DNA from: a virus
DNA: 47,250 bases
UHGV virus genome: UHGV-1363746
Strand: one strand, 5' to 3'
Shown: positions 5,963 through 10,399 of the stretch, one piece after another
How positions within the stretch are numbered: the stretch's first letter is position 1
Layout of the letters: every line of letters begins with the position of its first letter
Program-made: the position numbers and the translations under genes
Notes under the pieces: model-generated
Told to the model about the DNA's origin: nothing
The model's input: the letters and a program-made list of their open reading frames with translations, nothing else
Databases searched by the model: none

Positions 5963-6416
5963 GCTGACCTCTTACATTGCGAAGAAGTGAATTAAACAGG
6001 TTGCTCACATTTACTTCCTGCTCCTGCCATGAATAACGCCACAGCTTCTTGTGATGGTCATAGCTTCGCGTCACATCGCCATTATGAAACATGATGCGGA
6101 TGCGTCTTTTCACGATTTGGTAATCAATGCCAGTGGCGGTGCTGATTTCTTTCACCTCTGCGCCAGCGTTATCAAGTAAATGGCACTTAATCGCATCATC
6201 AATACCAGCTGCATCATCAGAGATGAAGTATTTATACTGCCATTTACTGCCACGAATCACTGACTTCTCGCGACGAATGAATCCAAGCGCGAGCATCTCA
6301 TGCAGGCGATGCGTTGTGGTGCTTGAATGCTTTCCGCCGCAATGCTTCTCAATATATGCGCGCGTTGCACCAGGATGCATCATAATCACGCGCATGATTT
6401 GTGACTTATAATCCAT
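5922..6416 (-). CDS. putative winged-helix DNA-binding protein
   Basis: 164 aa. The N-terminal ~70 aa have the pattern of a winged HTH (HEMLALGFIRREK...). Candidate transcription regulator. Confidence 0.35.
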   Translation of the reverse strand: MDYKSQIMRVIMMHPGATRAYIEKHCGGKHSSTTTHRLHEMLALGFIRREKSVIRGSKWQYKYFISDDAAGIDDAIKCHLLDNAGAEVKEISTATGIDYQIVKRRIRIMFHNGDVTRSYDHHKKLWRYSWQEQEVNVSNLFNSLLRNVRGQHGKGEAQETGSRL

Positions 6417-6663
6417 AATCGCGCTCCTCTGCTGCCTGATTGAAGTCGTCTGCGGTGTAGAGGTGTCCGTTGCGAGTATTCCATGACTTCACTGCTGATG
6501 CTTGATGAGGCCACTCATCAGTACCACACCCACACTGCGAGCAAGCAACGTAATGGCCATCGGTATTCTTATCACTGTATGCATCATTACTGTTGCAGAA
6601 TGGGCATTCCAGTAATCCCTCATCATTCATCATCGGCATATGTGGCGCGCTCATTTCAACCAC
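6406..6663 (-). CDS. Lar-like zinc-ribbon protein (restriction alleviation family, putative)
   Basis: CPFCNS...CSQCGCG with a downstream WNTR motif resembles the Lar_restr_allev family. Confidence 0.4.
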   Translation of the reverse strand: MVEMSAPHMPMMNDEGLLECPFCNSNDAYSDKNTDGHYVACSQCGCGTDEWPHQASAVKSWNTRNGHLYTADDFNQAAEERDYGL

Positions 6664-6905: not shown

Positions 6906-7133
6906 TCAACCGTTACTGGTTGAACTATAAACCAACGCAGATATAAGTTCGTCAGCCTTTTCACGACCTGCAACCTCCGCTTCAAGCGCCAGTGAACACA
7001 TGGCGGTTTCCACATACTTAATGGTATCTTCGCGAACGTTAAGGATTTCCATAACCTCGCGAACTTCCTTCTGGTATCTCGCTGCTATTTCTTTGTATTG
7101 CATTTCCACATCACCTTTTCCGTTGTGGTACAA
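6906..7133 (-). CDS. hypothetical protein; first gene of the leftward small-gene operon
   Basis: Likely start at MQYKEIA (7103) with RBS AAAAGGTGA. Confidence 0.4.
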   Translation of the reverse strand: MYHNGKGDVEMQYKEIAARYQKEVREVMEILNVREDTIKYVETAMCSLALEAEVAGREKADELISALVYSSTSNG

Positions 7134-7172
7134 TCTACGTCAATAAGTATTGACTAAATGATGTAGATTGGT
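7131..7172. promoter_or_regulatory. divergent control region with nested inverted repeats
   Basis: caATCTACGTCAATAAGTATTGACtaaatgaTGTAGATTGg contains GTCAATA-AG-TATTGAC and ATCTAC...GTAGAT symmetry. TGTAGATTG is the -10 block of the phage early-promoter consensus. The gene 7203 follows. Confidence 0.45.
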
Positions 7173-7202
7173 CAACAATAATTTTCGAAAGGAGTAGTAA
7201 AT

Positions 7203-7403
7203 ATGCCAAGACCACGACGCGAGCCGATGGACATTATCACCAGCATTGTGGAGAAGCGTCAGCCGCTGACACTCCGTGATGTTCGCTACTTTGCCCGTTG
7301 CTATGTTGCGCTGGCTGATATGCCAAAGGATGAGATGTACCAGATGATTCGCGAGAATTTTAACGTTGACGAAAACAACAAGGTTACATTGAGAGGTGAG
7401 TGA
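7203..7403 (+). CDS. hypothetical protein
   Basis: 66 aa with RBS AAAGGAG. Confidence 0.5.
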   Translation: MPRPRREPMDIITSIVEKRQPLTLRDVRYFARCYVALADMPKDEMYQMIRENFNVDENNKVTLRGE

Positions 7404-8032
7404 TGAGTAAATGCAAGAAAGCATGGAAATACCTGAAAGGCAGCGAGAGGGATTTTGCAGGGGCGCATGCTGGAGCTACGCATAAGTATGTGCATAAGGA
7501 ATTAGGCCATCCTATCTATACCGCCAACCCAGAAATCATTAAAGAAGTGCTATTTAACCTGGTTGCAGTGCGCGAGCCAATCACCGAATGCACATTTCAA
7601 GATGGCGTAGTGTTTGACGCGCCAATTGGCATGCCTCTTAATGAATTTAAATGTCGCCAGCAATCACTGAATGCCAACGATTCCGATATGCGCCTCAACG
7701 GAATTCCTGTCGGCGAATTTTCAGCCAAAGCGGATGTCGAAGTGGTCAAATACGACCCGACGAAACTTGACATCGAATCGCTGGTCACTGAGCGTGGCAA
7801 TCGTTACGGTAAATTCGCTGATGGCGCTAAAATCATGCGCTCACTAAAAGCCGTGATGCACAACACTGACGGCTGGTCACGATTAACCGACAGCCAACGC
7901 GAAGCGCTGGATATGATTCAACACAAAATCGGTCGCATCCTGAATGGCGACCCGGCATACGATGATAACTGGAAAGATATCGCTGGTTACTCAAAACTTA
8001 TCGCAGATGAATTAAATGGAGAAATCAAATAA
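7400..8032 (+). CDS. hypothetical protein
   Basis: 210 aa. The conserved-looking C-terminal helical region begins ERGNRYGKFADGAKIMRSLKAV. Confidence 0.5.
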   Translation: MMSKCKKAWKYLKGSERDFAGAHAGATHKYVHKELGHPIYTANPEIIKEVLFNLVAVREPITECTFQDGVVFDAPIGMPLNEFKCRQQSLNANDSDMRLNGIPVGEFSAKADVEVVKYDPTKLDIESLVTERGNRYGKFADGAKIMRSLKAVMHNTDGWSRLTDSQREALDMIQHKIGRILNGDPAYDDNWKDIAGYSKLIADELNGEIK

Positions 8033-8247
8033 TGGCAGATTGCAAATTACATTTGTCTGGTCATTTTGAGTGCAACGGATTCGCATGCAAAATGTCGACA
8101 AAGCACATCTCAATCGAGATGGCTGGAGATGGCGTTAAAGTTGAATATTCTGCTGGGGTGTTTTCCCCATCAGAAATTCAGCAAGCAATCGAACTTATCA
8201 CCAAGGTAAATAAAATCGTCAGTAAAGGCGGAATGGAGAAATTTTAA
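8032..8247 (+). CDS. hypothetical protein
   Basis: 71 aa, ATGA-coupled to its neighbour. Confidence 0.45.
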   Translation: MADCKLHLSGHFECNGFACKMSTKHISIEMAGDGVKVEYSAGVFSPSEIQQAIELITKVNKIVSKGGMEKF

Positions 8248-8555
8248 TGGCATTCACAGATATTACCATCGCGCAACGAAACGCGAACTACACCAATATT
8301 GCTGACACATCCGCACAACTGGTATCACTGAATAGCGACGGCAGCGCAGTGCTGAAAATCGGCACAGAAACAGCGCAATTCATCGTGCAGAATCTGTCGC
8401 AGGCAAACGCAAAGCAGGTGCTGATTAGCACTGGTAGCGTTTTGTTTTTGGCTGGCAATTATAATGCGCCAAATCTTGAGTGTTCACTGGTGCGCATCGT
8501 TGAAGTTATGACCGAGGAACCAGCTGATGAACCAGCAACATCAACAGCAGAGTGA
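8247..8555 (+). CDS. hypothetical protein
   Basis: 102 aa, ATGA-coupled to its neighbour. Confidence 0.45.
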   Translation: MAFTDITIAQRNANYTNIADTSAQLVSLNSDGSAVLKIGTETAQFIVQNLSQANAKQVLISTGSVLFLAGNYNAPNLECSLVRIVEVMTEEPADEPATSTAE

Positions 8556-8676
8556 GCCGTCAGCCTACATCGTTACGGATAATCGTGGTCGCCGCTATCT
8601 GGTGTTTTCTGGTAGCGTTGAGCATCGGAATGCAATTATGTTTGGCTATGAAATGAAACCACTATACGAATGAGGT

Positions 8677-8937
8677 GTGAAAATGTCTTTAAGCTTTGGT
8701 GAGGCCTTGAAGGAGATGGAAATTGGATGCAAGGTCGCAAGGAGCGGGTGGAATGGAAAGGGCATGTTCCTGTTTATGATAGCAGGAGGGGCATGGGATT
8801 TTGAGTGCGACATTGATGGGGTTGACGGGCTTGATACGCTACCTTTTATCTGCATGAAAACGGCTGACGGTAAGCTGGTGCCATGGCTGGCAAGTCAAAC
8901 CGATATGAACGCAAGCGACTGGATGGTTATTGGTTGA
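8677..8937 (+). CDS. DUF2829-family protein (Tad2-like; candidate anti-Thoeris sponge)
   Basis: GWNGKGMFLF...FICMKTADGKLVPWLASQTDMNASDWMVIG matches the DUF2829 signature. RBS AATGAGGTG. Confidence 0.55.
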   Translation: MKMSLSFGEALKEMEIGCKVARSGWNGKGMFLFMIAGGAWDFECDIDGVDGLDTLPFICMKTADGKLVPWLASQTDMNASDWMVIG

Positions 8938-8939
8938 CA

Positions 8940-8968
8940 GTAAAGCCCCATCACGGGGCTTTTTTATT
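8940..8968. terminator. bidirectional rho-independent terminator
   Basis: aaagccccatcacggggcttttttat, the same stem as the terminator at 461-490. Confidence 0.6.
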
Positions 8969-9209
8969 GAAAGTTGTCCTGATACCATTCCTGCCAATCG
9001 TAAATAGTCATCTTCCTTTTGGTGGCGCACTCCGTATTCTGGTTTTCTATAACAATGCTCTCATCGCTGTTTTTCGGTGCCACTTTCGATAATTCGCACA
9101 CCTCCCCCAGCATTTCTGCTGACGGCTGAGTCTGCGTCGAGAGCTGACTGGCGCAACCAGATATAGTTATCATCAAAAGTGCAAAGGGTACGATTCGGGT
9201 CAGAGACAT
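8964..9209 (-). CDS. Rz1-like outer-membrane spanin lipoprotein, partly embedded in Rz
   Basis: Signal peptide with lipobox ITISGC. Starts inside the Rz gene in another frame. RBS GGTGA. Confidence 0.5.
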   Translation of the reverse strand: MSLTRIVPFALLMITISGCASQLSTQTQPSAEMLGEVCELSKVAPKNSDESIVIENQNTECATKRKMTIYDWQEWYQDNFQ

Positions 9210-9450
9210 ATTTCACCACGTCGCGATAAATAGTTTTATATTTAGTTTCGGTCACCACGCGCACCTGTTGGGATTGCGCTGTTGACTTTTCCTGTTTGTT
9301 CTCTGCGTTCTGTTTGCGCTTGGCGGCATCAAGATTGACCTTATCACTATGCGCATACCATCCCTTCAGGTAGCCAGCGCCAAATGATAGCGAGCCAATA
9401 GCAATACCGGTCAATAGCGGGATTATAATTAATTTAGCTTTTGCCATCAT
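9061..9450 (-). CDS. Rz-like inner-membrane spanin
   Basis: N-terminal transmembrane segment followed by a charged periplasmic coiled coil. Located downstream of the endolysin. Confidence 0.5.
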   Translation of the reverse strand: MMAKAKLIIIPLLTGIAIGSLSFGAGYLKGWYAHSDKVNLDAAKRKQNAENKQEKSTAQSQQVRVVTETKYKTIYRDVVKYVSDPNRTLCTFDDNYIWLRQSALDADSAVSRNAGGGVRIIESGTEKQR

Positions 9451-9670
9451 CGCGCAGCCTCCGGTTTTCCTTCCTCATGCCGTGCATTTTTCCGAGAATA
9501 CCAACCAGCATGATGGAGTAGCTCACACCTTTGACCACGATTGGCGGTAGCGCCGCTTTCAGGTCGTCCGGCATCATTACCCACACATGCATCATTGCGT
9601 CAGGCCACAGCTGCAACAGCGAGCAGAATGAAATCCACGCGCCGAGCAGCCAGTTGCTTAGCTTTTTCAT
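9434..9670 (-). CDS. putative holin/pinholin-like two-TM protein
   Basis: 78 aa with two hydrophobic segments and a basic C-terminus. Sits between the endolysin and the spanin. Confidence 0.35.
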   Translation of the reverse strand: MKKLSNWLLGAWISFCSLLQLWPDAMMHVWVMMPDDLKAALPPIVVKGVSYSIMLVGILGKMHGMRKENRRLRDDGKS

Positions 9671-10131
9671 GCCACAACTCCACCGGCATTCTTATATACC
9701 TGAATCAGCTTATCCAGTTTCTGCTCATGCTGACCATAACCAGCACCCGGCAATGAAGCCCAGCGGGAGCGGCATTTATGGATAGCATCAGCAATGCGAC
9801 CAGCCTCAATGTCTGCGGTGGCTTTGCATTCGCGGATTAGCTGCATTGCAATGGCGTCCTGCGATGCTGGGGAGAAGTCAGGTAAACGCAATTGTTTTTT
9901 GTATGCGTCATAAAACTTAGCCAGCACCTGATAGCGCCCGGCGGCGGTGGATTTGATGCCCAGCTTTTGCAGGCTAATCAGCTTGCGTGGGTGGTCTGAA
10001 TAGTCAGTAAATAGCGAGCCACCAACAATCACATCATAGCCATGGTCATTGGTTTTTTGCCGCCCGTTATCAGTCCCCTCGCTGTACGCCAGCATATCCA
10101 GAAATGCCTTCATGTTTTTGCTAATAGCCAT
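9667..10131 (-). CDS. endolysin, lambda R-type lytic transglycosylase
   Basis: KAFLDMLAYSEGTDNGRQKT..HGYDVIVGG.LFTDYSDHPRK...AGRYQ...WASLPGAGYGQ is near-colinear with lambda R. Start at MAISKNMKAF. Confidence 0.85.
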   Translation of the reverse strand: MAISKNMKAFLDMLAYSEGTDNGRQKTNDHGYDVIVGGSLFTDYSDHPRKLISLQKLGIKSTAAGRYQVLAKFYDAYKKQLRLPDFSPASQDAIAMQLIRECKATADIEAGRIADAIHKCRSRWASLPGAGYGQHEQKLDKLIQVYKNAGGVVA

Positions 10132-10399
10132 ACCAGTAAACCTCTTTTTCAGCTTTGCGTTTTGCTTTATTGTCGGTCTTCTCGCCCCACACGATGAAAT
10201 GCGCGACGACACATGAGAAGCAGCGAAGGTTGTGTTTCTTCAGAAGCGTTGATTTGCGGAACGAGTCAATGCCGATGTCGGCGGCAAGGCTTGTCAGCGC
10301 ATCAAACTGATTCTGTGTTGTCTCAGTGGTGATGTAAGGCGATATATCTACAGCATCGTTAATTCCAAACGTCTCCATGCCGCGTTGCGATAGTTTCAT
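10121..10399 (-). pseudogene. truncated GH24 (T4/P22-type) lysozyme remnant
   Basis: QNQFDALTSLAADIG..FRKSTLLKK.NL matches the C-terminal half of P22 gp19/T4 e-type lysozymes. The N-terminal catalytic region is missing. It keeps its own RBS (GGGAGG) and ATG. Confidence 0.5.

Follow-up and report, generated by a model that had tools for sequence, protein, structure and literature searches.

Does the last small gene of an operon in the virus genome UHGV-1363746 encode a sponge that soaks up a Thoeris alarm molecule, and, if so, which one? The window, meaning the whole 47,250-nucleotide stretch of DNA analyzed here, represents a virulent siphovirus of ~47 kb that belongs to the Skate/STGO-35-1/Bas77-81 type. 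Such phages infect Salmonella, E. coli, and Klebsiella, and the closest database genomes are ~91% identical over ~78% of a 24-kb stretch. Thoeris is reported from many E. coli strains (PMC12922286), making it a relevant target for a phage with this host range. A first-pass annotation of the sequence had read the open reading frame at 8677 to 8937 (+ strand) as a DUF2829/Tad2-like protein and hence as a candidate Thoeris signal sponge. Pfam, phmmer, the predicted fold, and the conservation of contacts to gcADPR all agree with that reading. We consider it probable that the gene encodes a Tad2-type homo-oligomeric sponge for an ADP-ribose (ADPR) signal made by a TIR protein, with 3'cADPR as the likeliest ligand, which would block ThsA and which travels as accessory cargo of a Skate-like siphovirus.

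Gene boundaries and operon organization

The open reading frame at 8677 to 8937 exists as it was first described, with 86 aa counted from a GTG codon, but its start most likely lies elsewhere. The GTG at 8677 is in frame and 6 nt (two codons) 5' of an ATG at 8683. Direct reading of the + strand reveals a Shine-Dalgarno-like GAGGTG at 8672 to 8677, overlapping the TGA stop (8671 to 8673) of the upstream 48-aa gene and conserved in the alignment with phages vB_AbaM_AB4P2 and Flyfo siphovirus Tbat1_6. Its GAGG core lies 7 nt before ATG 8683, and GAGGTG itself overlaps GTG 8677; moreover, the orthologues in Tbat1_6 and AB4P2 are annotated from the equivalent ATG. Because ribosome-binding-site spacing and orthologue annotation both point to ATG 8683, GTG 8677 was rejected, and the true start is almost certainly this ATG. 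The Tad2-family (PF11195/DUF2829) coding sequence is thus placed at 8683 to 8937 (+), with a predicted product of 84 aa plus stop (MSLSFGEAL...; MSLSFGEALKEMEIGCKVARSGWNGKGMFLFMIAGGAWDFECDIDGVDGLDTLPFICMKTADGKLVPWLASQTDMNASDWMVIG), on the combined grounds of Pfam, phmmer, AlphaFold2 (AF2), Foldseek, orthologue annotation, and pN/pS. The strong ribosome-binding site of its own that the gene had been credited with is correctly described (GAGGTG, 8672 to 8677), and the motifs GWNGKGM and MKTADGKLVPWLASQTDM..DW are both found in the translation. Pairwise pN/pS against the two orthologues is ~0.11, indicating purifying selection on the + frame. Since homology and pN/pS both support this frame, two antisense open reading frames at 8646 to 8855 and 8839 to 9030 are regarded as spurious.

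The gene had been placed at the end of a four-gene early island. It is instead the last of six co-oriented genes on the + strand (7203 to 8937). The five upstream genes (7203 to 8673) abut or overlap and keep the same order in contigs L006 and L007; they encode proteins of 66 aa (7203 to 7403), 210 aa (7400 to 8032), 71 aa (8032 to 8247), 102 aa (8247 to 8555), and 48 aa (8527 to 8673), the last with the motif …RGRRYL.F.GSVEH.NA.MFGY.M..LYE, and the 84-aa Tad2-like gene follows at 8683 to 8937. Pfam and PHROG scans of these five genes, and of the alternative genes found at the position of the Tad2-like gene in other phages, returned only families of unknown function. In the 210-aa protein, the C-terminal 80 residues give a subthreshold match to DUF6378 (24.9 bits; threshold, 27.1), along with phrog_17775/16943. 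This gene is mosaic: relatives have a different N-terminal half, and the match to the counterpart in L007 is only ~30% identical over 91 aa.

As for the early label, it is plausible but unsupported, because promoter candidates are not enriched. Two weak sigma-70-like candidates (TCCACA-18-TACAAT with TG and TTGACT-18-AACAAT) lie at 7105 to 7179 (+), in the divergent intergenic region 5' of 7203, and the count of sigma-70-like sites upstream of 7203 is 8, versus 4.6 ± 1.9 in shuffled sequence. At the other end, a terminator scan places an intrinsic terminator at 8942 to 8970 (+), which closes the six-gene operon and adjoins the convergent spanin genes. Its hairpin (8942 to 8962) starts 4 nt after the stop of the Tad2-like gene, has an 8-bp stem (AAAGCCCC/GGGGCTTT) and a 5-nt loop (ATCAC), and is followed by a T-run; the folding energy is -14.4 kcal/mol (z = -2.6). 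Skate, Bas81, AB4P2, and Tbat1_6 have all kept the terminator sequence, which anchors 17 viral contigs in IMG/VR. Since the stop of an 81-aa spanin open reading frame abuts it, the one hairpin probably terminates both convergent units.

Two blocks on the − strand flank the operon. The one on the 5' side consists of small genes; the one on the 3' side is the lysis cassette, which converges on the operon and comprises spanins, a holin-like gene, and an endolysin in two parts. Among the small genes, a Lar-like restriction alleviation gene (6406 to 6663, −) encodes an 85-aa zinc-ribbon protein (PF14354; E = 2.3e-10). Judged by this match, it is a second putative counter-defense gene, less than 2 kb away from the Tad2-like one. 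In the spanin pair (8964 to 9450, −), the 81-aa open reading frame at 8964 to 9209 has a lipoprotein-like signal (…LLMITISGC…) and overlaps, in another frame, the 3' part of a 129-aa i-spanin-like open reading frame at 9061 to 9450. The endolysin (9667 to 10399, −) is apparently split over two overlapping open reading frames, a 92-aa Phage_lysozyme fragment (10121 to 10399; PF00959, E = 1e-9) and a downstream one of ~154 to 181 aa with no Pfam match; the split endolysin of relatives is annotated likewise, as a glycosidase and a transglycosylase.

Assignment to the Tad2 family

An HMM search with DUF2829 had been named at the outset as a test that could refute the Tad2 reading, and its outcome speaks for it: the protein matches Pfam PF11195 (Tad2-like, formerly DUF2829) with a score of 87.5 bits (gathering cutoff, 25 bits) and E = 8.4e-25 over profile positions 2 to 73 of 73. 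In a phmmer search against PDB sequences, all solved Tad2 proteins were matched in approximately full-length alignments, with E values from 3e-17 to 9e-15. HgmTad2/AcrIIA7 came first (8kbi, 3.2e-17), followed by ModTad2 (8v3e/9eib, 2e-16), SptTad2 (8wjd, 3e-16), and SPO1 Tad2 (8sme, 7.3e-15; 8wje, 9.2e-15). Identity to the characterized Tad2 proteins is 36 to 46%.

The predicted structure points the same way. A Tad2 monomer combines an N-terminal helix, an antiparallel five-stranded sheet, a variable insertion after beta2, and a short helix between the last two strands, and by AF2 and Foldseek the predicted monomer has this fold. The AF2 monomer model, built on 88 homologues, has a mean pLDDT of 94.9 and a pTM of 0.82. 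Its elements (H5-13, E17-20, E29-33, E55-59, E65-67, H72-76, and E80-83) run as alpha1, two strands, the insertion, two strands, a short helix, and a last strand, which is the topology published for SPO1 Tad2. Foldseek searches against the PDB gave 24 significant matches, all of them Tad2 chains, with E values from 1.2e-8 to 2.2e-6 and TM values reaching 0.82, and the 25th match had E = 0.32. By sequence and predicted fold, the protein clearly belongs to the Tad2 family. What is new here is a further member of a known family, and knowledge of the mechanism is unchanged; our literature search found no experiment on this protein or on any homologue more than 50% identical to it.

The best match in the PDB also carries a different label, which raises the question of whether the protein might instead be an AcrIIA7-type anti-CRISPR that inhibits Cas9. 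The entries 8kbi and 9kzr bear the deposited name "Inhibitor of Type II CRISPR-Cas system / AcrIIA7," and Escherichia phage Louie has a gene, 69% identical, with the annotation "anti-CRISPR protein." To our knowledge, E. coli and Salmonella have type I CRISPR systems, not type II-A, and we count this against such a role. Li et al. observed no inhibition of SpyCas9 by HgmTad2 (= AcrIIA7) or other Tad2 homologues, either in vitro or in vivo, and Yirmiya et al. make the case for an anti-Thoeris role of the DUF2829 family. On the published negative Cas9 assays the anti-CRISPR reading was rejected, and we give it next to no weight.

Conservation of the putative gcADPR pocket

Does the protein retain the residues with which Tad2 proteins hold their ligand? 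In SPO1 Tad2, contacts to 1''-3' gcADPR are made by W25, N26, W73, D79, T78, I63, T65, D67, H71, and S76 (Yirmiya et al., bioRxiv 10.1101/2023.05.01.538930). In HgmTad2, they are made by W21, N22, G23, M76, A78, T82, V84, W87, L88, S90, T92, and D93, and binding is abolished in the W21A/N22A and S90A/T92A/D93A mutants (Li et al., PMC10680739). By alignment, these contacts map onto W23, N24, G25, M58, T60, D62, K64, V66, W68, L69, S71, T73, and D74 of the window protein, so that, with the exception of K64, the canonical residues of a pocket for ADPR signals are present (W23, N24, G25, M58, T60, D62, V66, W68, L69, S71, T73, and D74).

Eight of the 10 SPO1 contacts (W25, N26, T65, D67, W73, S76, T78, and D79) are identical. 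The other two are conservative changes, I63 to M58 and H71 to V66, and these are the contact residues M76 and V84 of HgmTad2, common also to SptTad2. K64 corresponds to T82 of HgmTad2, whose contact is water mediated and which is the sole HgmTad2 pocket position that differs. Across the 88 homologues (51 to 94% identity), W23, N24, G25, M58, T60, W68, and D74 are invariant, and S71 and Q72 are kept in 87 of 88. None of the five to seven amino acid differences between the window protein and its orthologues in Tbat1_6 and AB4P2 falls on a contact position.

Side-by-side comparison with the solved proteins refines this picture. SPO1 Tad2 (gp34.65; PDB 8SME/8SMF/8SMG/8WJE) belongs to the same Pfam family, is 42% identical (89 aa, versus 84 aa here), and has the same predicted fold (TM, 0.72 to 0.79) with a similarly short insertion after beta2 (24 aa, versus 21 aa here). 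It differs in that the window insertion is acidic, with conserved W38/F40, and in that its stacking residue F44 is C42 in the window protein; SPO1 Tad2 also comes from a Bacillus myovirus, whereas the window protein comes from a siphovirus of Gram-negative hosts. The best matches are HgmTad2 (= AcrIIA7; 8KBI-8KBM, 8WJC), by E value, and SptTad2 (8WJD), by structure, with a TM of 0.82 to 8wjd. Both share the identical gcADPR-pocket segment GWNGKGMF ... CMK.ADG..V..WLASQTDM, but they possess a 35- to 41-aa insertion domain and the residues R31, S47, F70, and N85, all of which the window protein lacks. ModTad2/MoTad2 (8V3E, 9EIB) are of similar size, fold, and E value and share both the GWNGKGM loop and, in the pocket, the W/S/D residues. 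They differ in having SVSD where the window protein has SQTD, in binding His-ADPR and cUMP (the latter predicted for MoTad2), and in giving no type I inhibition.

Candidate ligands and proposed mechanism

By analogy with the solved family members, we infer that four copies of the 84-aa protein would come together as a dimer of V-shaped dimers, giving a homotetramer. Between protomers there would be two pockets, related by symmetry, each formed by the GWNG loop (W23, N24, and G25), by the strand residues M58/T60/D62/V66, and by the segment W68-L-A-S71-Q-T73-D74. Such pockets would bind an ADP-ribose-derived alarm molecule made by the host TIR protein ThsB and sequester it without degrading it, the likeliest ligand being 1''-3' gcADPR (3'cADPR) of type I Thoeris. 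With the signal soaked up, the NADase effector ThsA would stay inactive, and the infection would run its course.

How far does the sequence specify that ligand? The first-pass annotation had proposed gcADPR. It stands as the likeliest candidate rather than a proven one, because the Tad2 family is functionally diverse: a screen of 18 homologues found specificities spread over types I, II, and IV Thoeris, CBASS, and Pycsar, and one of them, Tad2_71, is a pan-Thoeris inhibitor that blocks types I, II, and IV (Hadary et al., PMC12393519). In the literature, four of five diverse Tad2 homologues inhibited type I Thoeris, and only ~1% of Tad2 proteins are predicted to be unable to bind gcADPR.

The main rival is therefore a Tad2 sponge whose principal ligand is another TIR product, namely His-ADPR (type II) or N7-cADPR (type IV), or whose range is pan-Thoeris like that of Tad2_71. 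Matches to ModTad2 are as good in sequence and fold as those to SPO1 Tad2, with an E value (2e-16) comparable to those of the gcADPR binders. ModTad2, a His-ADPR binder that fails to inhibit type I Thoeris, nevertheless retains most of the same canonical contact residues in the alignment, so pocket conservation cannot fix the ligand subtype. The homologues of Hadary et al. further include inhibitors of type IV Thoeris and one of all three types. On the other side, at the positions where ModTad2 diverges (Q to V and T to S), the window protein has Q72 and T73 as in gcADPR binders, and most tested homologues inhibit type I. Its SQTD motif is that of the gcADPR binders SPO1 Tad2 and HgmTad2, and also of SptTad2, whereas ModTad2 has SVSD; the preference for one ligand subtype relies on this comparison, and a literature search for residue determinants separating gcADPR, His-ADPR, and N7-cADPR specificity in Tad2 found no published rule against which to score it. 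Hence, the SQTD motif favors 3'cADPR without proving it, and a different or broader Thoeris specificity seems rather unlikely, although it deserves attention before any other alternative.

The short insertion and cyclic nucleotides

Another question is whether the protein might work on two fronts, additionally sequestering the cyclic dinucleotides of CBASS or the cUMP/cCMP of Pycsar where the beta2-beta3 insertion builds the interface of the V-shaped dimer. HgmTad2, SptTad2, and SaTad2 bind cGG/cGAMP at this interface through insertions of 35 to 41 aa (PMC10680739), with R31, S47, F70, and N85 forming the pocket in HgmTad2, and for MoTad2 the predicted ligand at this site is cUMP. SPO1 Tad2, with its 24-aa insertion, bound no cyclic nucleotide.

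In the window protein the insertion comprises 21 aa (residues 34 to 54), close to the SPO1 nonbinder and short of the 35 to 41 residues of the subclass that binds cyclic dinucleotides; among the 88 homologues its median length is 21 aa (range, 16 to 27). In the alignment, R31 of HgmTad2 is replaced by I33 and F70 by T52, N85 falls in a one-residue gap, and S47/K46 have no equivalent. The insertion has six Asp/Glu and not a single Lys/Arg, a composition unfavorable for an anionic ligand. Judging from its length, the R31-to-I33 replacement, the gap at N85, and the acidic composition, an HgmTad2-type cyclic-dinucleotide pocket is absent from the predicted protein, and inhibition of CBASS by the HgmTad2 route is not expected, since the insertion domain and R31, S47, F70, and N85 are missing. 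The insertion is nevertheless well conserved in the clade (W38 in 82 of 88 homologues and F40 in 68 of 88, plus D43, G46, T52, and P54), which may speak for a function of its own but could simply reflect the dimer interface. Taken together, we regard a two-pronged sponge as improbable and retain the Tad2 sponge for a TIR-made signal, most likely 3'cADPR, as the preferred reading.

A variable slot at the end of the operon

Where does such a gene come from, and is it kept? It occupies a slot at 8674 to 8941 of the window, between the end of the 48-aa gene (8673) and the start of the terminator (8942), and while both flanks are conserved, the content varies. We surveyed this slot by using the terminator as an anchor in IMG/VR and reading the open reading frames upstream of it (relatives include L004, 3574 to 3580, and L005, 3179 to 3385). 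The slot is empty in Skate and in six IMG/VR contigs (L011, L012, L014, L017, L019, and L026). A Tad2-like gene is found in the window, Tbat1_6, AB4P2, L015, and L021. Elsewhere, the slot holds a 68-aa crAss001_48-related protein (PF21825; Bas81_0025 of Bas81), a 58-aa phrog_5649 protein (L010 and L024), a 71-aa phrog_38236 protein (L016 and L023), or an acidic 86-aa orphan (L018). By location, these alternative occupants are candidate anti-defense genes.

The wider distribution of the gene is equally patchy. About 166 database phages share the operon, and a copy at least 90% identical occurs only in Tbat1_6 (UIW10255.1) and vB_AbaM_AB4P2 (WPJ20685.1), whose orthologues are ~93 to 94% identical, lie in the same operon slot before the same terminator, and are deposited only as DUF2829 or hypothetical protein. 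A 77%-identical allele sits in the same slot of a 47.5-kb metagenomic contig, a 78%-identical allele is a lone moron amid the morphogenesis genes of a different phage, and unrelated phages of Klebsiella, E. coli, and Proteus carry copies with 65 to 78% identity. A DNA-level search of 5,426 complete E. coli genomes did not find the gene, indicating that it is not a resident prophage gene in those genomes. Compared with the neighboring genes of the operon, the Tad2 allele is not unusually divergent (77%, versus 30 to 90% in this generally mosaic region). A horizontally mobile, dispensable, and patchily distributed gene is typical of anti-defense cargo.

One of the carriers has an odd record of its own. 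Over most of its genome, AB4P2 (L003; OR544125.1), deposited as "Acinetobacter phage vB_AbaM_AB4P2," is ~90 to 92% identical to the Salmonella/E. coli siphovirus group, and the host or morphotype label of this entry looks doubtful.

The absence of the gene from most relatives means that it is dispensable, and the same fact could be taken to suggest a DUF2829-fold protein with a role outside defense signaling, or a passenger gene in decay. The low pN/pS and the invariant ligand-contact residues argue instead for a maintained, predicted ligand-binding function, and dispensability with patchy spread is itself typical of anti-defense genes; a nondefense role or decay is thus very improbable, and the anti-Thoeris sponge again accounts better for the gene.

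A more speculative extension concerns both the insertion and the slot. The conserved and strongly acidic insertion of the enterobacterial-phage clade (A-G-G-A-W38-D-F40-E-C-D-I-D-G-V-D-G-L-D-T-L-P) is unlike the insertions of all solved Tad2 proteins, and because the insertion is the site where new Tad2 specificities arise, it could confer an undescribed short-insertion specificity, for example pan-Thoeris binding (including N7-cADPR or His-ADPR) or recognition of something other than a nucleotide, for instance a host protein. The swappable slot, in turn, could be a general cargo site for anti-defense genes, with the 58-, 68-, 71-, and 86-aa occupants as new ones. We hold this combined proposal to be rather unlikely.

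Implications

If the gene works as we infer, this phage and the few other carriers would be able to infect Thoeris-bearing Enterobacteriaceae, and Thoeris should block sister phages whose slot is empty or differently filled, Skate and Bas81 among them. Such knowledge would be useful for picking therapeutic or biocontrol phages. The series of presence and absence among near-identical phages provides a natural near-isogenic comparison for Tad2 in Gram-negative hosts. The variable slot is the more useful by-product of the analysis, since it offers four other small proteins as candidates for anti-defense screens.
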